In this document: positions 2,170 to 59,761 of the stretch, in pieces
Layout of the letters: every line of letters starts with the position of its first letter
Position numbering within the stretch: the first letter of the stretch is position 1
NCBI GenBank assembly: GCA_015067675.1
Contig: SVMB01000002.1
Location: 1,315-65,314 of the forward strand
DNA length: 64,000 nucleotides
Source of the DNA: Oscillospiraceae bacterium
GTDB taxonomy: Bacteria > Bacillota > Clostridia > Oscillospirales > QAMX01
Direction of reading: 5' to 3'
Notes under the pieces: generated by a model
The model's input: the letters and a program-made list of their open reading frames with translations, nothing else
What the model was told of the DNA's origin: nothing
The model's database searches: none
Position numbers and translations under genes: made by a program

Positions 2170-2295
2170 TCGCACTTCCTTTCCGGGATGTCTCCCGCAT
2201 CAAGCAATGCGGTGTTGGTCTCAAGCGGAAAATACAAAAGCCGGATAATATCAAGTCTGGCAAAGCCATGAAAACAGGCTTTGCCAGACTGTCAC

Positions 2296-3609: not shown

Positions 3610-3628
3610 GGATTTGCCCTCCTGTCAC

Positions 3629-4939
3629 TTACTGCGCTTTGAGTTCCTTGGTCAGCGCAACACTGGTCTCGATGAGCGCTTCGGCGACACCGGCCTTGAA
3701 GTTGGAGCTGCCGGCCTCGTAGCCGCCCTCGGCGAAGCAGTCATACATCGGATAGTAGCCCTGATAGCCGTTGGCGCAGCAGCAGGGAATGGTCATGGTG
3801 AAGGGAGACTGTTTCTTGATGCCGCGGCCGATGTCGGTGAAGGGCTCACCGGGCAGGCCTGCAAAGATAACATCACCAAAGCCCACGCAGGTCAGATACA
3901 GACCGTAGGAATCAGGCTCGTTTTCCAGACGGATGAGACGGTTGATCTGGCCCAGAGCCATGGGGACCTTGGTCTCGCGGCGGAACGCCACGGGATCCTT
4001 ATCGTAAAGCGCACGCAGAACCTTGGCCTGGGCAACTTCCTCGGCGGTACCCTTATTGGCGGGGACTTCGATGACCTTCTGACCGTAGACGACGCGGTCG
4101 GAGGCGACGGGAGTCGTATAAGAGTAGACGGAAAGCACAGCACCGGCGATGACACGGCCCATGTGCTGGGAATGATCAAGACCCTTGGCACGGCGGGCCT
4201 TGATGTTGATGTGGTTGGTATCACCCTGGGCACCGTTGAAGTAGACAACATGGACACCCTTGCCGTCCTTTTCACCGGCAAGCGCACCTTCCAGCGTGCG
4301 GCGCACAAAGCCCGGATAGTCCGAGCAGAATTTGCAGCCGCCGATGACGTCGGGATGGACCTGGAAGTTGACGATGGCGATGTCGGCAGCGTCCTCGCGG
4401 ACGATCTTGACCAACTGTACGGTCTCGTCGGGAGTACCGATGGGGCCGACCACGTTGGGGTCATTGCCGGGATTGGTATGGGCGGTACCATCCTTCATAC
4501 GATAGCGGCGCACGAACGAAATGCCCTTGGCCTCGCTGCGGGCGATCTCGACGGTGGCTTCCTTCATATCGGCAATCGCCAGAGAGATGGCGTCGGAGAT
4601 GCGGTTAAAGAGATAGTCGTTATAATGAGGATCGTTGGGGAAGAGGCGTCCGGCACTGATTTCGGGACCGGTATGGGTATGCGTGCAGGCAACGAATACG
4701 GCTTCGTAGGGGATGTTGTTATTCTCGGCGGCACGCTTGCGGATGATATCCATCTCGACCTGACGGATGCCGATCACGTCGAGGCTGACGACGGCAGCGG
4801 TCTTTTCACCGTCGGAAAAGGCTACGGCATGGGCCTGCAGGGGATCGATGATGCCGTTTGCGCGGCGCTCTTCAAAGTAACCAGAGATTCTGGTACCAAA
4901 CGGAGGGGTGATATCCAGTCTTGCAAATCCGGCTTTCAT
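3629..4939 (-). CDS. neutral/alkaline ceramidase-like N-terminal-domain protein (paralog 2)
   Basis: Colinear with 2296-3609 over its full length, roughly 60% aa identity by eye. The identical block TVQLVKIVREDAADIAIVNFQVHPDVIGG carries synonymous nucleotide differences. Confidence 0.6.
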   Translation of the reverse strand: MKAGFARLDITPPFGTRISGYFEERRANGIIDPLQAHAVAFSDGEKTAAVVSLDVIGIRQVEMDIIRKRAAENNNIPYEAVFVACTHTHTGPEISAGRLFPNDPHYNDYLFNRISDAISLAIADMKEATVEIARSEAKGISFVRRYRMKDGTAHTNPGNDPNVVGPIGTPDETVQLVKIVREDAADIAIVNFQVHPDVIGGCKFCSDYPGFVRRTLEGALAGEKDGKGVHVVYFNGAQGDTNHINIKARRAKGLDHSQHMGRVIAGAVLSVYSYTTPVASDRVVYGQKVIEVPANKGTAEEVAQAKVLRALYDKDPVAFRRETKVPMALGQINRLIRLENEPDSYGLYLTCVGFGDVIFAGLPGEPFTDIGRGIKKQSPFTMTIPCCCANGYQGYYPMYDCFAEGGYEAGSSNFKAGVAEALIETSVALTKELKAQ

Positions 4940-5084
4940 GTTGTGTCCATCCTTTCAAGTGGTAAATGTCAGTTCAGATTATCTGCGATGAAATCCGCAC
5001 GGAATCATGATTCCCGCGCAAGTACAGTATAACGTAGTTGATTTGATTCGTCAATGATGTTTTTCAGATGATATACTGTCCCGC

Positions 5085-6284: not shown

Positions 6285-6986
6285 ATGACATTGCGGATCG
6301 CGGTCTGCGACGACGACGCGGCAGCGGCGGAGTGGATGCGCGGACAGGCAGACGCCTGGGCACAGGGGTGCGGTATGCAGGCAAGCGTGGATACCTTCCC
6401 GTCCGCCGAGTGTTTTCTGCGTGACGCCGGGGCAAATCCCGGCTACGACATCCTGCTGCTGGACGTGGAGATGGACGAAATCTCCGGTATCGATCTGGCC
6501 AAGCGCATCCGTCAGACGGATCGGCACGCCGAAATCATCTTCGTCACCTCGCACTTTGAATTTTGCGGCGAGGGCTACGAGGTGGACGCGCTGCATTACC
6601 TGATCAAGCCCGTGGCAGCGGAAAAGCTCGCCGAGGTGCTCTCCCGGGCAGCGGATAAGCTCAGCGTCAGCCTGCGCACCGTGGTCATTTCAGCCGACGG
6701 CGAGACCGTCCGGCTGCGGGAGGATGACATTCTCTATGTCGAAGCCTTCGCCCATTATATTGCCGTACACGCCAAAAGCGGCGTTTTCCAGACCCGCGAG
6801 AATATCTCGTCCTTCGCCGACCATCTTGGCAACGGCTTTTTCCGGCTCCACCGCAGCTACCTCGCCTCTCTTCGCCATATCGTGAAGATCACCCGCACGG
6901 AGGTGGAGCTCTCCGACGGCTCCATGCTCCCGGTGGCGCGCGGACGCTACGATGAGCTGAACCGGGCATTTATCGAGTGTTATTGA
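6285..6986 (+). CDS. LytTR/AgrA-family response regulator
   Basis: Receiver domain (ILLLDVEMDEISGIDLAK) plus C-terminal LytTR domain (ILYVEAFAHYIAVHA...FFRLHRSYLASL). GGAGGGA SD before the ATG at 6285. Confidence 0.85.
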   Translation: MTLRIAVCDDDAAAAEWMRGQADAWAQGCGMQASVDTFPSAECFLRDAGANPGYDILLLDVEMDEISGIDLAKRIRQTDRHAEIIFVTSHFEFCGEGYEVDALHYLIKPVAAEKLAEVLSRAADKLSVSLRTVVISADGETVRLREDDILYVEAFAHYIAVHAKSGVFQTRENISSFADHLGNGFFRLHRSYLASLRHIVKITRTEVELSDGSMLPVARGRYDELNRAFIECY

Positions 6987-6994
6987 GGTGCGCC

Positions 6995-7645
6995 ATGAGA
7001 AAGAAAACATGGATCCGGCTTATGGAATACCAGACCGAGCAGTCGGCCAAACATCTGGGCGAGGTGCGCAGCATCTATCAGGAGATGCGCGGCTATAAAC
7101 ACGACTTCCACCATCACCTGCAGACGCTGAAGGGTCAGCTTGCCGCGGGCGATGTGGAACGTGCCCGGGCTTACATAGAAGAACTGGACCAGAAGCTGAT
7201 GGGCGTGGATACGCTGCTCAAGACCGGCAACGTGACGCTGGATGTGATCCTGTCGGCAAAGATTGCTCAGGCAAAAGCCGCGGGGATTGCCGTGACGGTG
7301 AAGGCAAGCGTGCCCGACGAGCTCACGGTTTCGGACGTGGAGCTGTCGATCATCGTGGGAAATCTCCTTGACAATGCCATTGAAGCCTGTCTCGGCGCAG
7401 CCGAAGGCCGATTTATCCGGCTGTATCTGTCGATGAAGGGGAAAATGCTCTACTTTTCCATGCTCAACACCTCCGGTGAAAAGCAGCAAAAACAGGGAAA
7501 TCTCTTCTCCACCCGCAAAAAGGGCATGCATGGCTTCGGGCTCAAGCGCGCCGAGTCGATTCTCGACGCCCACGGCGGCTGGGTGAAATACAACTCCGAG
7601 GACGGCGCTTTTTCCACGGAATTTCTGGTACCGGCGCTGCGATAA
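6995..7645 (+). CDS. GHKL (AgrC/SpoOB-type) histidine kinase core without membrane sensor domain
   Basis: H-box RGYKHDFHHHLQTL is followed by the ATPase motifs NLLDNAIEA and GMHGFGL. No hydrophobic segments. GAGGTG SD before the ATG at 6995. Confidence 0.75.
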   Translation: MRKKTWIRLMEYQTEQSAKHLGEVRSIYQEMRGYKHDFHHHLQTLKGQLAAGDVERARAYIEELDQKLMGVDTLLKTGNVTLDVILSAKIAQAKAAGIAVTVKASVPDELTVSDVELSIIVGNLLDNAIEACLGAAEGRFIRLYLSMKGKMLYFSMLNTSGEKQQKQGNLFSTRKKGMHGFGLKRAESILDAHGGWVKYNSEDGAFSTEFLVPALR

Positions 7646-8655: not shown

Positions 8656-10863
8656 ATGAAACGAACCCTTACCATCCTGCTCATCCTTGCGTTTCTCATC
8701 TCCCTCACGGCCTGTGCACCGGCTGCTGCTCCACAGCAGACCACCACAACTGCCGCCACCACCGCAGACCCCGCATCCACTCACACGCCTCTTCCTGACA
8801 GTGAGGAATTTATGTACGTCGCCGAGCACGGCGCAGCCCCCGAATGGATGCGCGGCGTCAACACGGCTGTCGCCGGCAACGGCCGCTTCTGGCAGTACAT
8901 GACCAACGCCCAGAGCGATGACCCTACCCCGTTTATCGGTTCCATCCGGGCCGAGGGTAATTTCTTCGAACGCCACCCCTACATTTTCGAAGATCAGCAC
9001 ATTCTCAGCGCATTAGCGCCCATTCCCAGCGAACAAAACTGCCTCTGGTTCGTTGAAAGCGTTTTCATTCCCGACGGCAGAACGTATGAATCCCACACGC
9101 TCGTCCGCGTGAACGCGGATGGCGAGGCCGTCGTCTCCGACGACGTGACTTCAATCATCGATGAGCGTGAGATCAGCCGCTCCGTCGGCGTGGCACTCAC
9201 CGACGGGCGATACTTCCTCTGCGTGGAAGATCTTGTCTGCCTGTTTGACGGCGAAGGGGAGCTGATCTTCAAAACCACAGTTGATCAGCACATCAACTAC
9301 CCCGAGGCAGCACTCACGTCCTCCGGCGAAATCGCGCTGCTGATCGATGTCAACGGTGCGCGCAAGCTTTATCTGCTGGACGAAACCGCGCAGATGCTCA
9401 AACCTATCGGCACCGTGAACGAAGGGGTAAATGAAATCCATCTGGCCGGGGGCGATGAGTTCTTCGATCTCTACCTGTTTGATGAATCACTCTGGGGCTA
9501 TCACCTTGCCACGGGTGAAAAGACAAAGATTGTCGCCTTCTCCGACTTCGGTATGCAGCCGGACAACCTCGTACGCATCCTACCGGTAGGCGTATCGGAA
9601 ACCGGCGCTCCGAAATTCGGCTGTTATGAGATCTTCGGCAGTCAGATATCGCCCACAGTTCTCGAGCAGCGCGTCAAGGTGCCGGAGAAGATCACGCTGA
9701 CGCTGGGCGTGCGGCTTCCGGACAAGGAGTTGACGGACGCAGTATCTCAATTTAATCGTCAGAGTGCGGAATACCAGATTGAGGTTATACAGTATGCAAC
9801 CAAAGAAAACCCAGACGATCTTTCCGGTTTTTCCGTTGCACTTTCCACCGGCGATATCCCGGATATGCTGGCTTTATACGGTCTGCCGGAACACAGTTTG
9901 ATACAAAAGAAACTCTTGCGTGATCTGACACCGTTCATGGAGTCAGACCCGGATCTTTCACCTGATATGTTTTTGCCCAATATCTATGATCTGCTGACCT
10001 ATTACGATGATGCACTTTACGGCCTTGCTCCCGGCTTTTCCATAATGACCATGCATGCACTACGTTCACAGGCAGGAGAGATTTCAAAAGATTGGAACTT
10101 TGCTGATGCCTTGGCGGTTCTGGACGCTAATCCGGGATTGATACAGCCCATTGCAGGAGACCGCACGAGCTTCATGCAAACGTATATCATGTTCGCGGCG
10201 GAGCCGTTTGTGGACTGGCAGAATCTGACCTCTTCTTTTGACAGTGAGGAATTTCTGAGACTTTTGGAGTTTATAAGCAGGTTTCCGAAAGAAAAACCGT
10301 CTGAATATGACAGCAACATGGAAAGTCTTGCCGCAGGCGAAGCAATGCTGATGTTTGATATGGGAGTAACCTCACCGCTTGCCTATTTTTCTGATTTCCG
10401 TGCACGGTTTGGTACGGATCTGCAAACTCCTGGTTTTCCCGCCAGTGGATCGACCGTTTTGTTTTATGACAAAATCGCCATTACTACATATTGCATGTAT
10501 CCGGAAGGCGCATGGGAGTTTATACGCTCCTTTATTCTTGGCGTCGATGGTGAAGATCTTGGTTTCGAAATCCCGGTGCTTGAATCTGAATACAAAGCAA
10601 TGCTTGATTACTGGCATAGCTATTATGCTGAACACAACGACAGCATTTACAATGGTCAGCCGCTCTATCAGCCCACGGAAGAAGATTTTGCTGCCTACGA
10701 TGCCATAATCCGCAATGCAAAGTCGGAACAAACAACAGACCGCTATGTCCTCCCCATCATGGTTGAGGAAATCCAGGCATTCCTCGACGGCGTACGATCT
10801 GCCGAGGAAACCGCCGAGGTCATCCAGAGCCGGGTAGCCCTCGTGCTCGCCGAGATGCAGTAA
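8656..10863 (+). CDS. large lipoprotein: N-terminal repeat/beta-rich region plus C-terminal solute-binding-protein-like domain
   Basis: Signal peptide with lipobox (LISLTAC) and a Thr/Ala-rich linker. The C-terminal ~390 aa resembles family-1 extracellular solute-binding proteins. AAAGGAGG SD. Confidence 0.7.
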   Translation: MKRTLTILLILAFLISLTACAPAAAPQQTTTTAATTADPASTHTPLPDSEEFMYVAEHGAAPEWMRGVNTAVAGNGRFWQYMTNAQSDDPTPFIGSIRAEGNFFERHPYIFEDQHILSALAPIPSEQNCLWFVESVFIPDGRTYESHTLVRVNADGEAVVSDDVTSIIDEREISRSVGVALTDGRYFLCVEDLVCLFDGEGELIFKTTVDQHINYPEAALTSSGEIALLIDVNGARKLYLLDETAQMLKPIGTVNEGVNEIHLAGGDEFFDLYLFDESLWGYHLATGEKTKIVAFSDFGMQPDNLVRILPVGVSETGAPKFGCYEIFGSQISPTVLEQRVKVPEKITLTLGVRLPDKELTDAVSQFNRQSAEYQIEVIQYATKENPDDLSGFSVALSTGDIPDMLALYGLPEHSLIQKKLLRDLTPFMESDPDLSPDMFLPNIYDLLTYYDDALYGLAPGFSIMTMHALRSQAGEISKDWNFADALAVLDANPGLIQPIAGDRTSFMQTYIMFAAEPFVDWQNLTSSFDSEEFLRLLEFISRFPKEKPSEYDSNMESLAAGEAMLMFDMGVTSPLAYFSDFRARFGTDLQTPGFPASGSTVLFYDKIAITTYCMYPEGAWEFIRSFILGVDGEDLGFEIPVLESEYKAMLDYWHSYYAEHNDSIYNGQPLYQPTEEDFAAYDAIIRNAKSEQTTDRYVLPIMVEEIQAFLDGVRSAEETAEVIQSRVALVLAEMQ

Positions 10864-11078: not shown

Positions 11079-12932
11079 TTGAACACCAGGGAATCAAAAC
11101 AGAAAGCATCCCACTCCGTGCTCAGCAATACCCTGTGGAGTTTTCGTACATCGCTTTCCTGCGCGCCCGGCGCGTTCTGGATGGCAGCGGCAATGGTGCC
11201 GCTCAACAGTATTATATCTTTCTGGCAGGTTTATGTGCCCGCCCTCGTGGTGGCTGAGTCCACCAGCGGCAAAGGTTATGAACAGGTACTCATTACCATG
11301 GGCATCTGGTTTGCGCTGATTCTGGCGGCAAGCCTTGTCCGGGATATCATCACGCGCTTTAATGAAAACGAATGGCAAAAGTATGCCATGCACATGGCGA
11401 TGCGCATCCGGCGCAAGTCCATGAGCTGCTTTTATGAGCAGTACGAGCGCAAGGAGGTACGCGACCTCTGCGACCGCGCCCTCATTACCACCCAGAGCTG
11501 GAACGGCAGGCAGCCGGTGACCGATCTGCAGAAGCAGTCGCTGCTGCTCATCGAAAACCTCATCGGCTATCTGCTGATGGGCGGCATCATCAGCGTTGCG
11601 GACTTCCGTCTGCTGCCCATTGTCATGCTCGGGCCGGTGGTAAATCTGTTTGCCGTGCGGGCGTTCAACCGCTGGAGCCAGAAGCATCACGAGCGTTACC
11701 GTGAGATCTCCCGGCGTCTCTCCTACGTCCTGCGAAAGCCCATGGACTTCGCCGCAGCCAAGGATATCCGCATCTACAGCATGCATGACTGGTTTTCCGA
11801 CACCTGCCGTCTCTTCATGGGACAGATCGACAAAGGCGAGCGTGAGAAAGTTCGCCGCCAGTTTGGCGTAAGCTTCCTCGCCCTTGCGATGATCCTGCTG
11901 CGCGACGGCGTATCCTACGCCTTTCTCATTGCGCTGACGCTCAGAGGCGGCATCAGCGTTGACCAGTTCGTGCTCTGCTTCGGCGCGATTTCGTCGTTCT
12001 CGTCCTTCTTCGGCAGCATTCTGGATGCTTTCGGCAAGCTCCATGAGACGAGCCTGCGCATTTGCGACCTGCGGGAGTATCTCGATCTGCCGGAGATGAC
12101 CGAGCGGGGTCATGAATCGATCGAGGCACATCTGGCCTCCGCGCCCGAGATCACCTTTGACCATGTGAGCTACCGCTACGCAGGCGCGGAGGAAGACACC
12201 ATCCGCGACCTGTCGCTGACCATCCACGCCGGGGAATCCGTGGCGCTGGTGGGCCTCAACGGCGCGGGTAAGACCACGCTTGTGAAGCTCATGTGCGGGC
12301 TTTACCGCCCCACCTCCGGCGAAATTCGTCTAAACGGCATCCCGGCAGACCAATTTCAGCTTCAGGACTATTACCGGATGTTCTCCCCGGTCTTTCAGGA
12401 CGCGCAGACTGCCTTTTTCTCCATCGGCGGCACCGTGTCGGCAAAGGTCAGCGGCGGCTATGATGAAGCCCGCGTCCTGCGCTGTCTGGAAGCTGCGGGA
12501 CTGGGCGAAAAGGTGAAGAGTCTCCCGAACGGCATTCACACGATGCTTGACAAGCAGCTAAACGAGAACGCCGTGGAGCTCTCCGGCGGCGAGGTGCAGA
12601 AGCTCATGCTTGCCCGGGCACTCTACAAAGACGCGCCGTTCCTGGTGCTGGACGAACCCACAGCGGCACTGGATCCCATCGCCGAAAACGCGGTCTATCA
12701 GGAGTACCGGCGCATGACGCACGGCAAATCGGCCCTTTTCATCTCCCACCGCCTTGCCTCCACCCGCTTCTGCGACCGGATCATCTACCTCAAGAACGGC
12801 GTAATTACCGAAACGGGCAGTCACGACGAGCTGATTGCGGCAGGCGGCGAATACGCAGAGCTTTATGAGCTGCAGAGCTGCTGGTACCGGGACGACTACA
12901 GAAAGGAGGACGACGACCATGACATTTCGTGA
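11079..12932 (+). CDS. ABC transporter, fused permease/ATP-binding protein (exporter type), subunit 1
   Basis: N-terminal TM region plus Walker A GLNGAGKTT, signature LSGGEVQK and Walker B FLVLDEPT. TTG at 11079 lies 8 nt after GGAAGGAGG. The ORF-track GTG at 11007 has no SD. Confidence 0.85.
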   Translation: MNTRESKQKASHSVLSNTLWSFRTSLSCAPGAFWMAAAMVPLNSIISFWQVYVPALVVAESTSGKGYEQVLITMGIWFALILAASLVRDIITRFNENEWQKYAMHMAMRIRRKSMSCFYEQYERKEVRDLCDRALITTQSWNGRQPVTDLQKQSLLLIENLIGYLLMGGIISVADFRLLPIVMLGPVVNLFAVRAFNRWSQKHHERYREISRRLSYVLRKPMDFAAAKDIRIYSMHDWFSDTCRLFMGQIDKGEREKVRRQFGVSFLALAMILLRDGVSYAFLIALTLRGGISVDQFVLCFGAISSFSSFFGSILDAFGKLHETSLRICDLREYLDLPEMTERGHESIEAHLASAPEITFDHVSYRYAGAEEDTIRDLSLTIHAGESVALVGLNGAGKTTLVKLMCGLYRPTSGEIRLNGIPADQFQLQDYYRMFSPVFQDAQTAFFSIGGTVSAKVSGGYDEARVLRCLEAAGLGEKVKSLPNGIHTMLDKQLNENAVELSGGEVQKLMLARALYKDAPFLVLDEPTAALDPIAENAVYQEYRRMTHGKSALFISHRLASTRFCDRIIYLKNGVITETGSHDELIAAGGEYAELYELQSCWYRDDYRKEDDDHDIS

Positions 12933-14727
12933 ACATATGGCCATGGCAAAGCGTGCGTTTTCATGGCAGCTGCGCTATGAGCGCAAGTATACGCTCTATC
13001 TGATCGTCCACACCCTGCTCACGGCGGGCAAATCCTACATCCCGCTGTATTTCGCAGCCGAGATCATCGACACGCTGGTGGCGGGAGAGCCGTGGCAGAC
13101 CGTGGCGATGTATGTGGTGCTGACGGTGGGTCTGACCTTCCTCGTCAACGCCGTCGCCGACTGGATCGCGCCGCGCATGAACGCCGAGCTTAACCGCACC
13201 TATCATCTTGAAAACTGGCGCTACAGCGAAAAGGCCATGGACATGGCCTACGAGTCCATCGAGGACCGTGAAGTGGAGATTCTGCGCGAGCGTACCCGTC
13301 AGGAGTCGCAGGTGGGCTACAACCGCTTCTATCTGCACCGTACCACCTCTGCAGTGATCTCCACCGTGACCCAGATTGTGCTGTCGATTGCGATGACGCT
13401 GTCGTTCTTCTTCAATCCCGCCGTGGCGCCCTGGATCAAGCTGACCTTCGCGCTGCTTCTGGCGGTAAACGTGACCATGGAGATCATCTGCACCGCCCGG
13501 TCGCAGAAGCTCACCAACGCCTTCTGGGACAGCTTCATATACGTCAACATTTTCGAAGAAAAGTACAACGGTTACATCAACAACTACACCACCGGCAAGG
13601 ATCTGCGTCTTTACGACATGGGAGACGGGATCATTGAAAACTTCGAGGCAAACGACCGGGACGTCTATACCCGCGGTAGAAAACTTGGAAAAGGACTGGT
13701 TCGTGAAAACTGGGCAATGGTGGTCATGAGCGAGGTGCTGAAGTTTGTCACCAACTTCCTGCTGGTGGCGGCAGCACTCTCGGGCGCGGTGAGCGTGGGC
13801 TCGATCTCAAAGTATGTGTCCAGCATCGTCAAGATGCTCACGGCCGTGTCAAAGCTCGTCAAGGACACGCAGCTGGCCTTCAACAATCACGAATACCTAG
13901 CCCGCTACTTTGCCTACTTCGACATCCCCAACAATATGTATCAGGGCACCTTAACGGTTGAAAAGCGTGACGACGTGGAGTACGACGTGGAGTTCCGGGA
14001 CGTTTCCTTCAAATACCCCGGCAGCGACACATACGCCCTGCGGCATGTGAGCCTGAAGTTCAAGGTCGGCGAAAAGCTGGCGGTGGTTGGCCTCAACGGC
14101 TCCGGCAAGACCACCTTCATCAAGCTCCTCTGCCGGCTGTACGATCCCACCGAGGGCGTGATTCTCCTCAACGGCGTGGACATCCGCAAATACGACTACA
14201 AGGAATATATGTCGATCTTCTCGGTGGTCTTTCAGGACTTCCGGCTGTTCGCCTTCTCTCTGGGGCAGAACGTGGCGGCAAGCACGGATTACGATCCCGA
14301 GCGGGTGAAGATGTGCCTTGAAAAGGCGGGTTTGGAGGAGCGGCTTGACGCGATGCCCAAGGGACTTGAGACCTGCCTGTACCGTGACTTCGACCCCGAG
14401 GGCGTGGAAATCTCCGGCGGCGAAGCCCAGAAGGTCGCCCTTGCCCGTGCGCTTTACAAGAACGCGCCCTTCATCATCCTCGACGAGCCCACGGCGGCGC
14501 TGGATCCCGTGGCGGAGTATGAGATCTACTCCCGCTTCAACCGCATCGTCGGCGAGCGTACCACGGTCTACATCTCCCACCGGCTTGCCTCCTGCCGCTT
14601 CTGCGACAATATTCTGGTCTTTGACGCAGGGCAAATCGTGCAGCAGGGCAGCCATGAGGCGCTCATCGGCGACGAATCCGGCCGGTATCACGCGCTGTGG
14701 CACGCACAGGCGCAGTATTATGTGTGA
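12919..14727 (+). CDS. ABC transporter, fused permease/ATP-binding protein (exporter type), subunit 2
   Basis: GLNGSGKTT, ISGGEAQK, FIILDEPT. ATG at 12919 follows GAAAGGAGGA and overlaps the end of the upstream gene by 14 nt, consistent with translational coupling. Confidence 0.85.
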   Translation: MTFREHMAMAKRAFSWQLRYERKYTLYLIVHTLLTAGKSYIPLYFAAEIIDTLVAGEPWQTVAMYVVLTVGLTFLVNAVADWIAPRMNAELNRTYHLENWRYSEKAMDMAYESIEDREVEILRERTRQESQVGYNRFYLHRTTSAVISTVTQIVLSIAMTLSFFFNPAVAPWIKLTFALLLAVNVTMEIICTARSQKLTNAFWDSFIYVNIFEEKYNGYINNYTTGKDLRLYDMGDGIIENFEANDRDVYTRGRKLGKGLVRENWAMVVMSEVLKFVTNFLLVAAALSGAVSVGSISKYVSSIVKMLTAVSKLVKDTQLAFNNHEYLARYFAYFDIPNNMYQGTLTVEKRDDVEYDVEFRDVSFKYPGSDTYALRHVSLKFKVGEKLAVVGLNGSGKTTFIKLLCRLYDPTEGVILLNGVDIRKYDYKEYMSIFSVVFQDFRLFAFSLGQNVAASTDYDPERVKMCLEKAGLEERLDAMPKGLETCLYRDFDPEGVEISGGEAQKVALARALYKNAPFIILDEPTAALDPVAEYEIYSRFNRIVGERTTVYISHRLASCRFCDNILVFDAGQIVQQGSHEALIGDESGRYHALWHAQAQYYV

Positions 14728-14740
14728 GAAACGTATTATG

Positions 14741-14781
14741 AAAAAGAGATCCCGGAGCTGTTGGCTCCGGGATCTCTTTTT
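14741..14781. terminator. bidirectional intrinsic terminator
   Basis: aaaaagagatcccggagc-tgtt-ggctccgggatctcttttt between convergent genes. Confidence 0.75.
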
Positions 14782-16369
14782 ACTCCTGTTCGTAATCGGT
14801 GATGATAAAGGCGATGGGTTCTGAGGAAATCCGGCCGTAATCGTTGGCGCAGAAGATCATGAAATGGCCGAAGGCATTGCCGTGGGAGGTGAGAACGGTT
14901 GATACGCTGCCCGCATCCAGTTCCTCAGGCGTCAGCATACGCTGGCGGTAGGAAATTGCGGCCTCTTCCTTCCAGGAAAGATAGGACGGCTTGCAGGCAA
15001 AGGCTCCTGAGAAGGCCGCATTGACCCGGCTCCCCTCCTTCGCGCCCAGCGCGTAGAGCGTTACATCGTCGCCGACGTTGAAAGAGAACACTATCCTGCC
15101 GTCAGCGTCGGTAAACATGGCGGCGGTTCGTACCACGATCCTGCCATCTTTCTCGCATACTGCGGCACGGACGGGATAGAGCCGCTTGCCGTCGGTGACG
15201 GCAATGGTCCCGGTATCGTTTGACAGCGTACCGTCTGCGGCATAGAGGCAGGCAGATTCCCGGGTCAGGGGACTGCCGTCAGGCTCCACGGGGGTGAGTG
15301 CAATGCGCGGGAAAGCCTGTCCCTCGGCGTCTGTCAGGGTCACAGCGGGAAGCCTGACGACATTGAAGCTGACCGAACGTGTCCGCCTGCCGGTTTTCTT
15401 GCAGTAAGCCGTATAATAGCCCGGCGCAAGGTCTGAAACGGTGCAGATTCTGAGCGTCTGTCCCAGAACCGTGGTGGGGATAATCCCCGTCAGGTCAATT
15501 TCCCGACGGGAATCCGCGCTTTCGACAATGAGAGTATCGGCATCGGCGTTTACGTTGAAGCAGACCGGCTCATCGGTCTGATAGTTTGCAAAGTCGCCGT
15601 GATCCGGCATCAGCTCCCGGTTATGGACATCGCCGAGCTCATTGCGGGTGGGCATATACTCCACGCTGTCCAGGAACCGGTAGCGGAAAATCTGGTACAT
15701 CTGTCCGGGTTTAGTGAGCGTATCATTGAAATCTTCTGCCGTGTACCATCTGCAAACAGGAAACGGCGGCATGCCTTCGGAGATTTCCACGCTCCGAACT
15801 TTTCCCTCCGCATCCCGGGCGATCCCGGTGACAATGCGCACATGACCGCCGGTGTGTCCGTCGGGGCGGGTGGTGACAAGGGTATCGCAAAGCTCCAGAC
15901 CATCGGCACTCTGGTCGGCAATGCGGTCAAACTCCGGCGCAATGTCCCATTCGTGGGTCGAGCGATGCAGCGGCAGACCCAGCGCATAGTTGACGAAAGT
16001 ACTGCATACGGTGCCGTAGGTGAAAAACGTGTTCCGGATGGTACAGTTAAACGCCGGCTCGTCGAAATCGGACAGATCGCGGGTATAGAGTACCGACGCG
16101 GGATTATCAACAGCGGTCACAAAGGTATCGATGGAGACGTCGAGTCCCACGAAACAATTGAGGATACGGGAGGAGGAATACGGGATGCCGGTATAGGCTT
16201 CCGGCTGCGTATGAGGTTTGCCGCTGCGTGTGGACTGGATGTATTTTCTCGGATTGATCTGCACCTCCATCACCGGCGACCAGGTGATATCCAGAAGCTG
16301 GCGGGCACGGCGCAGGACATTTTCCACGCCTCGGGAGCGGGGCTTATCGCAGATGAGCTGATCGTTCAT
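14780..16369 (-). CDS. hypothetical cytoplasmic protein; N-terminal domain with possible papain-like (NlpC/P60-type) Cys/His pair, C-terminal beta-rich region
   Basis: GTVCSTFVNYALG and GHTGGHVRIVTG are spaced like a Cys...His hydrolase core. AAGGAGAAGG SD. Sits 11 nt downstream of the preceding gene. Function not recognised. Confidence 0.55.
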   Translation of the reverse strand: MNDQLICDKPRSRGVENVLRRARQLLDITWSPVMEVQINPRKYIQSTRSGKPHTQPEAYTGIPYSSSRILNCFVGLDVSIDTFVTAVDNPASVLYTRDLSDFDEPAFNCTIRNTFFTYGTVCSTFVNYALGLPLHRSTHEWDIAPEFDRIADQSADGLELCDTLVTTRPDGHTGGHVRIVTGIARDAEGKVRSVEISEGMPPFPVCRWYTAEDFNDTLTKPGQMYQIFRYRFLDSVEYMPTRNELGDVHNRELMPDHGDFANYQTDEPVCFNVNADADTLIVESADSRREIDLTGIIPTTVLGQTLRICTVSDLAPGYYTAYCKKTGRRTRSVSFNVVRLPAVTLTDAEGQAFPRIALTPVEPDGSPLTRESACLYAADGTLSNDTGTIAVTDGKRLYPVRAAVCEKDGRIVVRTAAMFTDADGRIVFSFNVGDDVTLYALGAKEGSRVNAAFSGAFACKPSYLSWKEEAAISYRQRMLTPEELDAGSVSTVLTSHGNAFGHFMIFCANDYGRISSEPIAFIITDYEQE

Positions 16370-36648: not shown

Positions 36649-37302
36649 CTAGCGCAGCGCTTCCAGCGCCTTTTCATCGGCAATCTCCACCGTGCCGCGC
36701 GTCAGCCGCACCATGCCCTCGTTCTGGAAGTAGCGCAGCATACGCGTCACCACCTCCCGGGCGGTACCCAGATGGTTGGCGATCTTTTCGTGGGTGATTT
36801 TGAGCACATTCGTGTCCTCAAGCCGGCATTCTTCCAGCAGAAAAGCCGCCAGACGCCGATCAAAGCTCTTCCACATGATCTGCTCCATGAGCCACATGAC
36901 CTCGGAAAACCGGCTGCTGATGAGCAGATTTGCGTAATTGGACACGGCGATGGATTCCCCCATCAGTTCCTTGAACAGGCAGGAGGGGATGATCCACATC
37001 TCGCTGTCCTTTTCTGTCTCGATGATAATCTCAAACTGCACGTCCGGCATCACGCAGGAGGCCGAAAACAGGCAGATATCCCGTTCAAACAGACGGTAGA
37101 GGGTCACTTCACGGCCTTCCTCCGAGAGTACGTAGGCCCGGAGCTGTCCCGATGCGATCAAAAGAAGTCCCAGGCAGTCCATACTGCCGCGATGCAGTAT
37201 CGTACCGCCCTTTACCCGGCGGTATTCGGATGCGTGCCGAAGCCTTTCCTGCTGCGGCATCGTCAGCTTGTCCCAGAACGGCAGATACTCTGCAAGCTCC
37301 AT
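36649..37302 (-). CDS. Crp/Fnr family transcriptional regulator
   Basis: cNMP-binding-like N-terminus plus C-terminal HTH (THEKIANHLGTAREVVTRMLRYFQNEG). Confidence 0.85.
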   Translation of the reverse strand: MELAEYLPFWDKLTMPQQERLRHASEYRRVKGGTILHRGSMDCLGLLLIASGQLRAYVLSEEGREVTLYRLFERDICLFSASCVMPDVQFEIIIETEKDSEMWIIPSCLFKELMGESIAVSNYANLLISSRFSEVMWLMEQIMWKSFDRRLAAFLLEECRLEDTNVLKITHEKIANHLGTAREVVTRMLRYFQNEGMVRLTRGTVEIADEKALEALR

Positions 37303-37358: not shown

Positions 37359-37407
37359 TTCTTTCTCGGGATTTCATCATTTCTCAGCGATATAAGAGGG
37401 CTGCGGC

Positions 37408-37597
37408 AAAATGCAGTACCGGACTGTGATTCGCAGCAGATGTTAAGCGGCGCAGCCGAGTGAGGAACGCTTTGCGTTCCTCGGGGTGCAGGGGCGTGCC
37501 GCCCCTGCCGAGGGGGACAAAGGGGGGCGAGCAGCCCACCGTCGCTCCTGTAAGGCGCAGTAACAGAATGAAAGATAAAGCGGATAGAAGACGGCAA
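37408..37597. repeat. left arm of long inverted repeat
   Basis: Reverse complement of 37902-38090 with ~9 differences (hand alignment). Confidence 0.9.
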
Positions 37598-37723
37598 TAT
37601 AAAGAAAATCTAATGAAACTGGTGGGTTTTGCAGCTTTTTCTTCATCCTTCCGTCGAGACGCAAGTGAAACGAACGTCGAGCCACGATTGAACACGTATT
37701 CTGCTATACCAAGAGATAGAGAA

Positions 37724-37771
37724 ATGCCGTCTTCTGCAACATGACCGCGTTGCAGAAGACGGCATCTTTTT
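37724..37771. terminator. bidirectional terminator at the centre of the inverted-repeat element
   Basis: atgccgtcttctgcaa-N10-ttgcagaagacggcat. Followed by cttttt on plus and tttctctatctctt on minus. Confidence 0.75.
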
Positions 37772-37901
37772 GTTCCGTTATGTTGAAGCAGACAGCTTCT
37801 ATCATGGCTTGTGACTCGTGAACGCGCAGCGTTCACTTGTCACTCGACGTTGGTACAGCAGAAGATACGATCAGGCGGCGAGGTTTTGAGTTAATCATTT
37901 T

Positions 37902-38090
37902 TTGCCGTCCTCTATCTGCTTTATCTTCCATTCTGTTACTGCGCCATACGGGATCGACGGTGGGCTGCTCGCCCCCCTTTGTCCCCCCGGCAGGGGCGGC
38001 ACGCCCCTGCACCCCGAGGAACGCAAAGCGTTCCTCACTCGGCTGCGCCGCTTAACATCTGCTGCGAATCACAGTCCGGCATTGCATTTT
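37902..38090. repeat. right arm of long inverted repeat
   Basis: See left arm. Contains hairpins gcaggggc-ggcac-gcccctgc (37990-38010) and gaggaacgc-aaa-gcgttcctc (38016-38036). Confidence 0.9.
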
Positions 38091-38124
38091 ACAGTATTCT
38101 CTTTCGGAATAACCCTATCAGTTT

Positions 38125-39327
38125 TCAATCCAACAGTGCCAGCACGTCCGGGAACAGCTGCAGACTGCGCCGCAGGATCCCATGCATCTGCGCAATGGCA
38201 ACGCCGTAGTTCACAATCGGCACATCTGCGCTTGCGCAGCGCGCAATCCGGCTCTTCATCTCCGCTTCATTCAGCATACAGCCGCCGCAGTGCACCACCA
38301 GCGCATAGTCTCTCACGTCCTCGGGAAATTCCCCGCCGGAGGTAAAGCTGTAGGATGGTTTTACTCCGGTGAACTTTTCAATCCAGCCGGGGATCTTGAT
38401 CGTACCGATGTCATTGCACTGCCGGTGATGGGTGCAGCCTTCGGAGATAAGCACCCGGTCGCCTTCCCGCAGCTTTGCAAGCGCCGCCGCGCCCCGGATC
38501 AGCTCATACAGATCGCCCTTATATCGAGCCATCAGGATCGAGAAGGACGTCAGCGGGATATCCGCCGGCGTATCGGCGCTCACCTTACCGAATACCTGCG
38601 AATCGGTAATCACCATCTTCGGCTTACGTGCAAGGGAAGCCAGGGTATTTTTGAGTTCCGTATCCTGACAGGTCACGACAATAGCATGGGCATCCAGAAT
38701 ATCCCGGATGGTCAGCTGCTGCGGCAGGATCAGGCGACCCTTGGGCGCCGCTTCGTCAATGGGCGTCACCAGTACCACAATATCCCCCGGCTCCAGCAGA
38801 TCGGCCACCAGCAGCTTCTGATTGCCGGCCTTGCCTGCAAAGCTGCCCAGCTTCTCTTTCAGCGCCTGTATGCCCTCACCGGTGTCAGCACTGACGTACA
38901 GACTCGGCCCATCCACCGCCGGGCGTTCCGCCATCAGATCGGCCTTGTTATACGCCACCACATACGGGATCTTCCGCGCCCGGATGTTTTCCAGCAGTGC
39001 CTCATCCTCGGCGCTTATCCCCTGCGTACCGTCCACCACCATCACGGCAATGTCCGTATGGGCAAGCGCCTGCCGGGCTTTCTGCACGCGCATCGCGCCC
39101 AGCTCGCCCTCGTCATCCAGTCCGGGCGTGTCGATGATGACCACCGGCCCCAGAGGCTTGAGCTCCATGCTTTTGCGAACAGGGTCCGTGGTGGTACCCT
39201 TCACGTCGGAAACCACACTGAGCGACTGCCCGGTTACAGCGTTGACAAGGCTTGACTTTCCGGCATTGCGCATACCGAAAAAGCCGATATGCAACCGTTC
39301 ACCGGATGCTACACTGTTAAGACTCAT
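38125..39327 (-). CDS. hydF: [FeFe]-hydrogenase H-cluster maturation GTPase HydF
   Basis: GMRNAGKSS P-loop, DTPG, NKAD. C-terminal CTHH...HCGGC cluster motif. Confidence 0.9.
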   Translation of the reverse strand: MSLNSVASGERLHIGFFGMRNAGKSSLVNAVTGQSLSVVSDVKGTTTDPVRKSMELKPLGPVVIIDTPGLDDEGELGAMRVQKARQALAHTDIAVMVVDGTQGISAEDEALLENIRARKIPYVVAYNKADLMAERPAVDGPSLYVSADTGEGIQALKEKLGSFAGKAGNQKLLVADLLEPGDIVVLVTPIDEAAPKGRLILPQQLTIRDILDAHAIVVTCQDTELKNTLASLARKPKMVITDSQVFGKVSADTPADIPLTSFSILMARYKGDLYELIRGAAALAKLREGDRVLISEGCTHHRQCNDIGTIKIPGWIEKFTGVKPSYSFTSGGEFPEDVRDYALVVHCGGCMLNEAEMKSRIARCASADVPIVNYGVAIAQMHGILRRSLQLFPDVLALLD

Positions 39328-53461: not shown

Positions 53462-53490
53462 ATTATACCGTTTTTCGCTCATTTTGGCAA
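53462..53490 (-). promoter_or_regulatory. outward-facing promoter at the left junction of repeat copy 2
   Basis: Minus strand: TTGCCA (first bases of the repeat)-17 nt-TATAAT (flank), reading toward the AraC gene. Confidence 0.45.
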
Positions 53491-53987
53491 TACAAAGAAA
53501 ATTTGATGAAGTTGGTGGTTTTTGAGACGTTTTCTTCATTCTTCCGTCGAGGCGCAAGTGAAACGAGCGTCGAGCCACGATTGAACACGTATTCTGCTAT
53601 ACCAAGTGATAAAGAAATGCCGTCTTCTGCAGCATAACCCAGTTGCAAAAGACGGCATTTTTTTGTTTCGTGATGCTGAAGCAGACGGCATCTATCGTAG
53701 CTCGTGACTCGTAAACGCGCAGCGTTCACTTGTCACTCGTCGTTGGTACAGCAGAAGATACGATCAGGCGGCGAGGTTTTGATTTAATCATTTTTTTGCC
53801 GTCCTCTATCCGCTTTATCTGTCATTCTGTTACCGCGACATACGGGATCGACGGGGGCTCCTCGCCCCCTTTGACCCCCCGCCAGGACCAGGGCCCTGGG
53901 CCCTGAGGAACGCAAAGCGTTCCTCACCCGGCTGCGCCGCTTAACATCTGCCGCGAATCGTTGTCCGGAATTGCATTTTATCCGCAG
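53486..53987. repeat. second copy of the repeat element (core plus right arm only)
   Basis: Colinear with 37593-38090, roughly 85% identity by hand alignment. The left arm is absent. Confidence 0.85.
53617..53665. terminator. bidirectional terminator inside repeat copy 2
   Basis: atgccgtcttctgca...tgcaaaagacggcat followed by ttttttt on plus and tttctttatc on minus. Confidence 0.7.
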
Positions 53988-54005
53988 CGTCAAAGTGGCG
54001 GCTAA

Positions 54006-56207
54006 TCAAAAGCGCATCAGCACCGCTTCTCCCGCCTGCAGCTTCACCGCATCCACCGTTTCCCCGGTCACCACGTTCACTGCCGTGCCCGGATGCAGAG
54101 ATTCCGCCTTGAGAATCGCAGCCTGATCGGTAAAGTTTGCTGCCAGGCAATATCCATTCCCGTCTCTCGCCGTGACAGTCAGGACGTGTATCCCGTCCAT
54201 CTTCTTACATTCCAGCGATCGGCTCAGCTGTGCGGTCTGATCAGCATCTCCCAACGTCAGCGCAAATCCCACGTTCAGGATTTCCGTGTTTCTGTCGACC
54301 CATTTGTATTCTCTGCAGAACGGCGCACAGACTTCTTCCGCATACAGCGTACCGCTCTTTTCTCTTCGAACGATATCAACCTGCCGCCTGCCCTCTCTGA
54401 CAAGCGTCAGCGGCATATTGGCGGCAATACCGATCTTGTTATCGAAATTCACATAGCTGCCCAGCGCAATGGTCTCAAACCGGCCGGCATAATCGCCGCC
54501 GCGCAGATACCGGCTGCCGTTTTCAAACACGATATGGCGCTGTCTGCCGTTAAAGATGTCGTTGGGCACGTTATAGAAGATGCCCGAGACCTCCGAGATG
54601 AATACGCGGTTGAGCGTCCTGGCATACTGCAGGCAAAGCACGGTATTGTCATCGGGAAGGGCTGCAAACGCAATCTGCTTTCTGGCCATCTCCTCCAGGT
54701 TCTGTCCTTCTGCCATAAAGAGGTCGGAAACCGAGATGGTGGAACCGATTGTCAGGAAGCCTCCGTCAAAGGAGTACACCTTATTTGCTTCTTCCTCGTC
54801 ATAATTGAGTCTGCCGACGCCGACGATCCTCGCGCCCAGATTAAAACGCCATTCCGCCAGCGAGCTGTCGTCCTGCGGCACAAGCAGTCCCTGGGGATTT
54901 TCGGCGGACTTCCATACGAAAGAGGCATAGCGGTTCCCGGTCGCGGAGAAAGCTGCACCGTGGAAGTCGTCCTTCCAGGCAGTGATCTTCTCAGGCTGAC
55001 GGAAGCGCCGCAGGTCAAATTTCTGGTGCCAGTAAAGGCTCATGGAAATCGTATTGGCGCGGTCGCTCTCCAGACGGGTGTAATAAAGAGGCGACAGGTT
55101 TTCAAAGTGACCGAAGCGGTTTGAGAGGAACGAGCCGTCCCCGTTGACCGCTGTTTCCTTCTGCAGGATTTTCAGCCATCCGTCCTCCAGCATGCCGCAG
55201 TCTTCTCCGCAGACGTCCTCGATCAGCGCCCAGGAGGGCAGCGCATAGTCCTGACAATAGCAATATCTGGCACGGGAATCTCCGCCGATGCGCAGGAGTC
55301 TGCCGTCATCAAAGGTAGTCGAGCGGATCAGCTTCCACTGCTCCTTGAGATGGTGGTAGATGATATCGTCCGCCTTCATGCCCCGGGCTTTCAGAGAGAA
55401 ATGGATCATGGCGATATTGGACAGGCAGATATTCAGGTAGCCGATATTCAGATAGCCATGGTGATTCGTGGCGTAGGTTTCAAACATATTCGCACCGACA
55501 AACAGATCGCCGACACGCAGGCCATCCACGATCTCATCGGAATTTTCATCAGACTCAATCGAGATGCCGTTGGCAAAAAACCGTCTTGCCTTGTCAATGT
55601 AGCGCTCCTTGTTCGGCGTATCGGGATAGAGCATGGCTGCGCGGTACAAAATCGCACCGTTCCAGATATTGCTTTCGGGGCGGTTGAGATTGTTATAGCC
55701 GCCCACGGTCTGGCTGACCCTCGCACTGCCGTCCAGACCCGCTACAACCGGGAACTCATGCAGGATATAGTCGCTTTCGGATATCATCACCTTCTTCAAA
55801 AGCGCCTTATCCTCTTCGGTCAGATCCTCCCAGATGGCCTCAATGCCATGAAACATCCGCTCGATGCCCAATACATAGATCCAGTTGTGACCCCACTTCC
55901 CGCCGTCGATACAGACAAAGTCGCCCTCCAGATGGGTACGCAGAGTATAGCGCAGCATGCCCAGCGCCTGCTCCAGCACCTGCTCTCTGGTGATCGGAAG
56001 ATCGGACAGATCCACATTTTCCAGCTTCGCCAGAATGGCAAACGCGGAAAACGCCTTCTGATGGGTATGAACGCCCCAATGACCGTGTTCACCCGCGCCG
56101 TAGCAGATCAGACCCTCTTTTTCCGGGCAGTAATAGAGATGTTTCTGGGAAAACACCACCCAGTTCTTCAGCAACGCAGCATAGCCGTTAAAATCAAACT
56201 CTTTCAT
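54006..56207 (-). CDS. hypothetical protein, possibly (alpha/alpha)-toroid plus beta-sandwich, heparinase II/III or polysaccharide-lyase-like
   Basis: 733-aa cytoplasmic protein with weak resemblance to heparinase II/III-type architecture. GGGAGAAAG SD. Confidence 0.4.
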   Translation of the reverse strand: MKEFDFNGYAALLKNWVVFSQKHLYYCPEKEGLICYGAGEHGHWGVHTHQKAFSAFAILAKLENVDLSDLPITREQVLEQALGMLRYTLRTHLEGDFVCIDGGKWGHNWIYVLGIERMFHGIEAIWEDLTEEDKALLKKVMISESDYILHEFPVVAGLDGSARVSQTVGGYNNLNRPESNIWNGAILYRAAMLYPDTPNKERYIDKARRFFANGISIESDENSDEIVDGLRVGDLFVGANMFETYATNHHGYLNIGYLNICLSNIAMIHFSLKARGMKADDIIYHHLKEQWKLIRSTTFDDGRLLRIGGDSRARYCYCQDYALPSWALIEDVCGEDCGMLEDGWLKILQKETAVNGDGSFLSNRFGHFENLSPLYYTRLESDRANTISMSLYWHQKFDLRRFRQPEKITAWKDDFHGAAFSATGNRYASFVWKSAENPQGLLVPQDDSSLAEWRFNLGARIVGVGRLNYDEEEANKVYSFDGGFLTIGSTISVSDLFMAEGQNLEEMARKQIAFAALPDDNTVLCLQYARTLNRVFISEVSGIFYNVPNDIFNGRQRHIVFENGSRYLRGGDYAGRFETIALGSYVNFDNKIGIAANMPLTLVREGRRQVDIVRREKSGTLYAEEVCAPFCREYKWVDRNTEILNVGFALTLGDADQTAQLSRSLECKKMDGIHVLTVTARDGNGYCLAANFTDQAAILKAESLHPGTAVNVVTGETVDAVKLQAGEAVLMRF

Positions 56208-59686: not shown

Positions 59687-59761
<75 letters not shown>

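Follow-up and report, generated by a model that had tools for sequence, protein, structure and literature searches.

What is the long inverted repeat that lies between hydF and a Crp/Fnr-family regulator gene in an uncultured bacterium of the ruminant gut? We address this question in a stretch of 64,000 nucleotides of contig SVMB01000002.1 (Oscillospiraceae bacterium, assembly GCA_015067675.1), hereafter the window, whose numbering we use for the locus. An initial annotation made from the letters alone had described at 37408-38090 two arms wrapping a bidirectional terminator, and had proposed as explanations a non-autonomous element resembling a MITE (miniature inverted-repeat transposable element) or a PATE (palindrome-associated transposable element), a new family of structured RNAs, or a recombinogenic repeat. 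We find that the locus is one copy of a previously undescribed family of dispersed, mosaic intergenic repeats in an uncultured ruminant-gut Oscillospiraceae/Ruminococcaceae bacterium. Its most likely role, which we propose with moderate confidence, is that of a co-transcribed 3'-end and terminator cassette that is spread and reshuffled by recombination.

The inverted repeat is real and far beyond chance. A repeat search returns two arm blocks, 37408-37526 paired with 37972-38090 (119 nt, 94% complementary) and 37512-37597 paired with 37902-37987 (86 nt, 93%), which are interrupted solely by a 1-nt indel. Global alignment of 37408-37597 with 37902-38090 counts 8 mismatches and one indel over about 190 nt, matching the roughly nine differences first counted by hand. 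The halves of the core, initially read as homologous in inverted orientation, prove in the repeat search and in alignments to be diverged inverted copies of each other, both of them 'tail' modules around the same hairpin. The 190-nt inverted repeat is nothing more than two homologous half-units that face each other. Together they occupy most of the 822-bp spacer that separates the stop of hydF (38125, minus strand) from the start of the Crp/Fnr gene (37302, minus strand).

A dispersed family of convergent half-units

The initial annotation had taken the locus as unique and overlooked a second copy in the same window. A BLAST comparison of the region with the window finds this copy (W2, as opposed to W1 at the hydF locus) at 53486-53990, with 88% identity to W1 over 500 nt. 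W2 consists of the right arm, both tails and the terminator; the left arm is absent. Further contigs were recovered with a spurious antisense open reading frame (ORF) of the element, 37384-37836, as protein query, and nhmmer with a half-unit model was then run on these contigs. Pairs of convergent half-units are found at every locus: W1, W2, L018, L019, L020a-d, L023/L024, L025, L031, L032 and L034. Besides the copies on L020, further ones come from ruminant-gut metagenome contigs, the source communities being those sampled in JGI 3300031555, 3300018494, 3300024268 and ERZ286538xx. L018 and L025 represent the hydF-crp locus of other strains, and L023/L024 represents the L020b site in another strain. 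The hydF-crp locus is also present in a second MAG (GCA_017532755.1), on an 11.4-kb contig that encodes HydF MBR6748742.1. The contig L020 alone holds four copies in 9 kb (6640-7353, 9801-10512, 12341-13095 and 14697-15446).

We assign L020 to the same genome as the window because of its protein accessions and labels and its nucleotide composition. The HydF and Crp proteins of the window (MBE6928784.1 and MBE6928783.1) and the DUF58 protein of L020 (MBE6929928.1) are all labelled 'MAG: Ruminococcaceae/Oscillospiraceae bacterium', and the tetranucleotide correlation between the two stretches is 0.94. This amounts to six copies in 84.6 kb of one genome, both stretches having been picked for holding a copy. 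Our guess for the whole genome is tens to a couple of hundred copies.

The family is rare in public data, as the spurious ORF query returns only 8 matches among 1.84 billion protein-cluster representatives. A chimeric six-frame protein query of the element gives 0 significant matches among 8000 candidates. Exact 19-20-mers from the arms give only chance matches in GTDB representative genomes and JGI metagenomes, as a BLAST comparison with the whole element shows; viral contigs, scanned three times, return nothing or chance matches, and sensitive blastn finds no match in plasmid and phage collections. The family was also not found in the 42 kb around hydF of the nearest other genomes, whose HydF proteins are 76-77% identical and whose spacers downstream of hydF measure 132-235 bp. 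The antisense frame is open through the GC-rich arms, giving ORFs at 37384-37836 (minus strand) and 37902-38345 (plus strand), and the public gene calls P0001-P0004 and P0125-P0129 are spurious arm ORFs of the same kind (61-207 aa, no Pfam domain), that is, annotation artefacts.

A full copy measures 590-760 bp and comprises two convergent half-units that meet at a central hairpin. The initial description of two convergent units of about 340 nt, each made of arm and tail with one terminator in common, holds in every copy found, and the pairs are always convergent. Each half-unit (about 310-340 nt) has an arm of several hairpins (about 190 nt), which an A-rich linker joins to a tail of about 110 nt formed around one irregular hairpin. 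Reading 5' to 3', it begins with a conserved end, (CTGYRGCAW)AAATGCAAT. The 5' region behind this end is variable and leads to hairpin H2 (CGNN-GCA-NNCG), then to a perfect palindrome (optional; GGAACGC-NNN-GCGTTCC, invariant in 13 arms), to hairpin H3 and to a compound hairpin H4. After H4 come a nearly invariant unpaired stretch, CAGAATGRMAGATRAAGCG, the motif AGAGGACGGC and the A-rich linker, which is of variable length. The tail has a small hairpin T1, the irregular hairpin T2 and the segments GAGCCACGAT...CCGTCTCC, and then the terminator is reached. The purine-rich strand is the one that runs into the terminator, with 56-61% purine in 16 of 16 half-units. In W1 these parts are placed as follows, together with the two neighbouring genes.

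37394..37595, sense plus: left arm (nhmmer 37403-37708, E=4e-87; covariation)
37448-37458, plus: hairpin H2 of the left arm
37462-37482, plus: optional invariant palindrome of the left arm
37488-37508, plus: hairpin H3 of the left arm
37512-37549, plus: compound hairpin H4 of the left arm
37564-37582, plus: nearly invariant unpaired stretch CAGAATGAAAGATAAAGCG of the left arm
37584-37595, plus: conserved end ATAGAAGACGGC of the left arm
37596..37625, plus: A-rich linker of the left half-unit (alignments; linker length varies among copies)
37626..37715, plus: left tail, including the T2 hairpin
37652-37686, plus: T2 hairpin of the left tail (5-bp covarying stem, conserved purine internal loops, loop AAGUGAAACGA)
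37724..37765, both strands: central intrinsic terminator hairpin (17 bp, 8-nt loop), common to both half-units
37775..37880, sense minus: right tail (alignments)
37803-37849, minus: T2 hairpin of the right tail, with an extra hairpin GTGAACGCTGCGCGTTCAC inserted
37881..37903, minus: A-rich linker of the right half-unit (alignments)
37904..38100, sense minus: right arm (nhmmer 38093-37784, E=1.6e-89)
37990-38010, minus: hairpin H3 of the right arm
38016-38036, minus: optional palindrome of the right arm
38125..39327, minus: hydF, last gene of hydE-hydG-hydF (Pfam HydF_dimer/HydF_tetramer)
36649-37302, minus: Crp/Fnr-family regulator gene

The GC-rich hairpins first noticed at 37990-38010 and 38016-38036 are found again here and have mirror copies in the left arm, at 37488-37508 and 37462-37482 respectively. 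The central hairpin is present with its T-runs on both strands as first reported, with 17 pairs counted in the stem instead of 16. Its folding energies on the two strands are -29.8 and -29.9 kcal/mol, and the T-rich tract that follows reads CTTTTTGTT on the plus strand and TTTCTCTATC on the minus strand. A strong hairpin stands at the centre of all 10 elements examined, and in 7 of the 10 it has T tracts on both strands. W2 shows the same arrangement without its left arm.

53486..53606, plus: left tail only (nhmmer matches model positions 201-313 only)
53617..53658, both strands: central terminator hairpin, with T tracts on both strands
53670..53990, sense minus: right tail, linker and right arm (nhmmer 53983-53676, E=1.6e-80)

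The small palindrome has a distribution of its own. It occurs at 37462-37482, 38016-38036 and 53906-53926 of the window, at 12828 and 15160 of L020 and at 733 of L023. As GGAACGC-NNN-GCGTTCC or GGAACTC-NNN(N)-GAGTTCC it is also found outside the element, at 20325 and 20376 of L020. In some copies the T2 loop contains an inserted palindrome of related sequence, and the presence of such insertions varies between strains at one copy (L020bR compared with L023R). This palindrome looks like a separate REP-like mini-repeat nested in the larger element, to judge from its occurrences. The two outside sites belong to a repeat-rich spacer (L020 20100-20567) that is unrelated to the arms and carries, besides these two small GGAAC palindromes, a duplicated AAGCCTCGGCGGCT and a tandem CACTTGGGCTGTGAGGGCTC.

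Structural constraint, position and probable recombination

A test for covariation finds compensatory changes far above those in shuffled controls. Identity from arm to arm is only 48-98%. Across 20 arms, 97.8% of the cells in the arm stems pair, compared with 88.2% after shuffling, and double changes affect 9 pairs and 40 cells compared with 5.1 and 11.5, a level that 0 of 500 shuffles reach. With slid partners as controls, pairing falls to 40-51%. Covariation in the arms was also run on 15 arms, and RNAalifold was applied as well. The 5-bp stem of T2 is 96% paired (72% when shuffled) with 20 double-change cells (5.8 when shuffled), and its variants include GACGC/GCGUC, GUCAC/GUGAC, GUGAC/GUCAC, AUUGC/GCAAU, ACGAC/GUCGU, AUGAC/GUCAU and GGCGC/GCGUC. 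RNAalifold lengthens T2 in both directions through the conserved internal loops GA/GA and AA/GA. Further compensation is seen in the H4 variant GUY-GAA-GGGGC...GCCCC-UG-GAC, where the middle pair of GAC/GUC is swapped from A-U to U-A (read from the alignment, which MAFFT misaligns), and in the terminator stem, where CGUAUUC/GAAUACG alternates with CGUCUUC/GAAGACG. The conserved unpaired stretch reads CAGAAUGRMAGAURAAGCG. Judged by this pattern of substitutions, the fold of the half-unit is maintained.

Two other potential pairings were examined and both rejected. Antiterminator pairing of the arm end AGARGACGGC with the 5' strand of the terminator, examined by eye, is perfect in W1 and W2 and absent from the other copies. 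A pseudoknot between the conserved unpaired stretch and the tail was rejected, as no consistent pairing is found. The tails contain no conserved ORF; ATG-initiated ORFs are missing from some copies, and elsewhere their frame and length vary. For want of a conserved frame, a pair of small-protein genes or a type I toxin-antitoxin pair is rejected.

The position of the copies adds to the picture. None lies inside a gene. At the 8 loci with both flanks known, 2 gene pairs are convergent, 6 are tandem and 0 are divergent. At 10 of the 16 flanks a gene ends within 0-60 nt of a half-unit and reads into it. This sample is too small for statistics. At L020aR, L020cL and L020cR the TAG stop codon of the flanking gene falls inside the conserved end, CTGTAGCATAAATGCAAT. 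The right arm of W1 begins 25-34 nt past the stop codon of hydF and is co-directional with it, and that of W2 begins about 16-25 nt past the stop codon of a 733-aa gene (54006-56207, minus strand). Such placement agrees with a cassette that is either tolerated or of use where transcription units end.

Promoter-like sites are found just outside or at the edge of the element. A search of the core for an outward-facing promoter found none. A promoter-like site for the crp gene, TTGACG-17-TATACT (37358-37330, minus strand), lies just beyond the edge of W1. Before the AraC-type gene next to W2, another such site, TTGCCA-17-TATAAT (53490-53462, minus strand), has 11 of 12 matches, with the boundary bases GGCAA of W2 making up its -35 hexamer. 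From this overlap, the edge of W2 may have created, or become part of, the promoter of the AraC-type gene. A riboswitch or 5' leader is rejected since the half-units point to the central terminator, away from the downstream genes, and also because the promoters of crp and of the AraC-type gene lie beyond the element or at its border. A THF riboswitch (RF01831; 85 and 83 bits) is found directly downstream of copy L020b, at L020 10558-10684 and at L023 1058-1185, upstream of a gene for an ECF-transporter S component.

Comparison of copies and strains points to recombination. The two arms inside one element are 58-92% identical, and the 3' third of the arm comes in either of two forms, each freely combined with the remainder. 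L018 has a core and a crp-side half nearly identical to those of the window, with a different arm variant on the hydF side. In L025, whose HydF is 99% identical, sites diagnostic for one or the other arm of the window alternate as a patchwork along the hydF-side arm, and this arm runs on into the crp-side type of linker and tail. A core inverted through recombination within the arms would show such an arrangement. Shortened derivatives also occur, W2 lacking one arm and L023L carrying an internal deletion. From these comparisons we infer a mosaic family that is homogenised and reshuffled by recombination between copies.

How might such a cassette work? Transcription that enters from a gene on either side would copy a half-unit in its purine-rich sense and stop at the central hairpin; at W1 it is the hydF transcript that would run into the right half-unit in sense orientation. 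The element would supply termination in both directions along with a folded module in the 3' untranslated region (UTR), and this module could shield the 3' end, direct processing or serve as a docking site for a protein. Spread and homogenisation would proceed by recombination or gene conversion among copies, to which an enzyme acting in trans may contribute, and a flipped core could arise as a by-product when the arms recombine. The architecture, the copies and their positions, the compensatory changes, the terminators, the lack of a conserved ORF and the differences between strain contigs are observed; that the modules are transcribed, that they act as RNA and how they spread are points that we infer. 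Points in favour of RNA are the covarying stems with their asymmetric, conserved purine loops, the A-rich linkers, a purine bias that is uniform, and the fact that every half-unit is oriented toward a terminator.

Several observations weigh against a co-transcribed, recombining cassette. Wobble evidence is slight: in the consensus stems read on the sense strand, G.U occupies about 6-11 cells and A.C 0-2, some of them from misaligned columns. The sense strand is more stable in only 11 of 16 half-units (mean -2.5 kcal/mol). The compensatory changes would equally preserve hairpins of single-stranded DNA, and they may partly reflect subfamily structure among the copies. Some half-units do not obviously receive a transcript. 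W1 left, L020bR, L020dL and L034R face the 5' side of a gene, where sense transcription is not expected, yet most are intact; no promoter-like site precedes the arms, and the left arm of W1, which has no sigma-70-like promoter, is structurally intact. At L020aL and L020dR the arm follows what appears to be the upstream gene's own terminator. The strain differences come from short contigs that end in or near the repeat and may be assembly chimeras, and no empty site was found, the closest genomes (HydF 76-77%) being too distant for a true one.

Alternative explanations

The strongest alternative, which we consider possible though improbable, is a conventional MITE moved by a transposase encoded elsewhere, with the arms as terminal inverted repeats, the hairpins as recognition structures, possibly in single-stranded DNA, and the terminator as a passenger that renders insertions harmless. 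The family is multi-copy, dispersed, strictly intergenic and non-coding, as the initial annotation's MITE/PATE-like proposal would have it. Every full copy has inverted ends, the outermost motif AAATGCAAT is conserved, derivatives such as W2 and L023L have lost parts, and the relatives with short hydF spacers lack the family. Other features speak against it. The initial annotation saw no target-site duplication, and none is visible at W1; a comparison of 16 arm ends shows no direct repeats, and the outer boundaries are fuzzy and fall into at least three classes. Its statement that the window lacks a transposase agrees with a Pfam scan of about 40 window ORFs, and counting two contigs with precomputed labels, about 150 kb contain no transposase, integrase or recombinase. 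In particular, about 85 kb of the genome hold no Y1_Tnp match of the kind that a RAYT (Y1 transposase) gene would give; an IS200/IS605-type PATE is rejected on other grounds, the ends being inverted repeats and not distinct left and right hairpins. MITEs are generally shorter than 200 bp, with some up to about 400 bp (PMC3184786), and a size of 590-760 bp with arms of about 190 nt (310 nt with tails) is far outside the usual range (PMC3184786). Finally, stems that remain 96-98% paired in every copy despite 20-50% divergence would be unexpected if the copies were dead and decaying.

A more far-reaching version of the cassette, which we regard as unlikely, makes the half-unit a new class of large structured RNA. 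A 3'-end cassette that spreads by itself would carry it, each genome having tens to hundreds of copies and selection keeping the fold in every one, for example for docking or processing, as a mark of mRNA 3' ends. The arms would also let the terminator core flip, altering read-through into downstream genes (from hydEGF into crp). The initial suggestion of a new structured-RNA family is upheld as far as strong covariation of the stems and the lack of a match above the Rfam threshold are concerned. It falls short on the slender strand and RNA evidence, and on the half-units that have no incoming transcript.

The same weakness of the wobble signal lends some weight to a purely DNA-level module, palindromic and cruciform-prone or protein-binding in the manner of BIMEs with IHF or gyrase, that would organise the nucleoid or insulate convergent transcription while the RNA fold is incidental. 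Orphan half-units are intact (W1L, and L020bR/L023R at 98% identity), and the perfect palindrome of the arms resembles an operator for a dimeric protein. We find this reading doubtful: conserved asymmetric purine internal loops between covarying stems, and A-rich linkers, are typical of RNA and not of sites in duplex DNA, all half-units have their purine excess on the strand entering the terminator, and a canonical intrinsic terminator is central in every copy.

It is about equally doubtful that each half-unit is an independent small RNA (sRNA) gene of about 340 nt with its own promoter, which would make the locus a convergent pair of paralogous sRNA genes. Each half-unit does end at a terminator and has a conserved, covarying fold, and H3 with its flanks weakly resembles the Rfam sRNA motif Clostridiales-2. 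The missing promoters count against such genes: a -35 region would have to lie outside the conserved element, where the sequence differs between copies, and several arms overlap the upstream gene's stop codon or start 3 nt behind it.

A programmed invertible switch, in which flipping the core would re-aim the stronger terminator and set read-through from hydEGF into crp, seems to us very unlikely. It could draw on the patchwork arm of L025 and its junction with the crp-side linker and tail of the window, on a T tract that is stronger on one strand (CTTTTTGTT compared with TTTCTCTATC) and on the shared strand of hydF and crp. On the other side, the window has no recombinase gene nearby, the arms are ten times longer than inverton repeats so that general homologous recombination is enough for inversion, the same architecture is present at many unrelated loci, and the core, unlike the promoter-bearing segment between the short inverted repeats of an inverton, contains a terminator without a promoter. 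One short contig only shows the alternative orientation, and L025 ends 45 nt past the arm, where an assembly chimera at an inverted repeat would look alike. Of the initial idea of a recombinogenic repeat, there is left the L025 junction of the hydF-side arm with the opposite tail, as an inverted core would give, in this short and possibly chimeric contig; a programmed switch has left no sign.

One other repeat in the window is of a different kind. At 2236-4957 there are three tandem repeats of about 1330 bp (71-79% identity), apparently tandemly duplicated genes, and a 453-aa ORF within them (2281-3642) has no Pfam match.

Comparison with known repeats and RNAs

Most dispersed repeats between bacterial genes are short, and the known ones come mainly from proteobacteria, pneumococci and neisseriae. 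The element described here is far larger than most such repeats; it keeps the stems of modules of about 310 nt by compensatory change and brings a ready-made bidirectional terminator. If the modules act as RNA, many unrelated mRNAs would carry the same kind of large structured RNA domain, a situation that would be rare. Even if the element is purely selfish, it breaks metagenome assemblies and yields spurious ORF calls, and it can create promoters at its edges (53462-53490) and offer a substrate for inversion or gene conversion beside metabolic operons.

The initial annotation could not match the element to tRNA, rRNA, tmRNA, a riboswitch core, group II intron domain V or a CRISPR repeat. A Rfam scan gives no match in the element at the gathering score, be it to tRNA, tmRNA, riboswitches, group I/II introns, large ornate RNAs, omega/HEARO RNAs or any other family. 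Within the window the only such match is tRNA-Cys (GCA) at 59687-59761 (minus strand), and permissive scans return chance-level hits and a sub-threshold hit to Clostridiales-2 (RF02937), a candidate sRNA. The likeness to the latter concerns H3 and its flanks, GGGUG-CAGGGG...CCCCUG-CCG ... GUC(G/A)AAGGG. The element reaches 16.7-24.6 bits where the gathering score is 58.6, the model's middle part of 33 nt has no counterpart, the match spans about 55 of about 310 nt, and the new copies have no match at E<1. ARAGORN finds nothing in the element, and group II intron domain V was rejected for want of a match.

The closest parallels are found among repeats. REP and BIME sequences are extragenic, multi-copy palindromic units in inverted mosaic clusters, biased to 3' ends and convergent genes, linked to recombination, and co-transcribed with effects on mRNA 3' ends (PMC3184786). 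Like the REP and BIME sequences of enterobacteria and pseudomonads, REPIN doublets included, our element is extragenic and multi-copy, with inverted units and a mosaic combination of variants of the arm, the 3' part of the arm and the tail. However, a REP unit is a palindrome of about 20-40 nt, whereas the unit here is a multi-hairpin module of about 310 nt, a canonical intrinsic terminator lies between the units, and there is no sequence similarity. Solely the optional palindrome of 17-23 nt, GGAAC[GT]C-N3-4-G[AC]GTTCC, is REP-like in itself.

Among Firmicutes, SPRITE is an intergenic repeat with a terminator-like fold and a bias to convergent genes' 3' ends, and BOX is modular and mosaic (PMC3184786). 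Our element too bears a terminator hairpin and T tracts near gene 3' ends, in a small sample. SPRITE differs in being a single hairpin of about 105 bp from pneumococcus; the element has 590-760 bp, two covarying modules and a host from another bacterial family, and shares no sequence similarity with it. With MITEs such as Correia (CREE) and ERIC it has in common a non-coding nature, inverted ends, the long hairpins that would form on transcription and the potential to alter the expression of neighbours. MITEs, in contrast, have short terminal inverted repeats and defined target-site duplications (TA for Correia), while this element has no visible duplication and fuzzy ends, and its 'repeat' is the whole structured module. 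We do not file it as a MITE or a REP because target-site duplication and size speak against the former and the short unit against the latter. By analogy, the element is best seen as a distinct and much larger two-module variant that would act like REP/BIME, SPRITE and MITEs while being a member of none of them.

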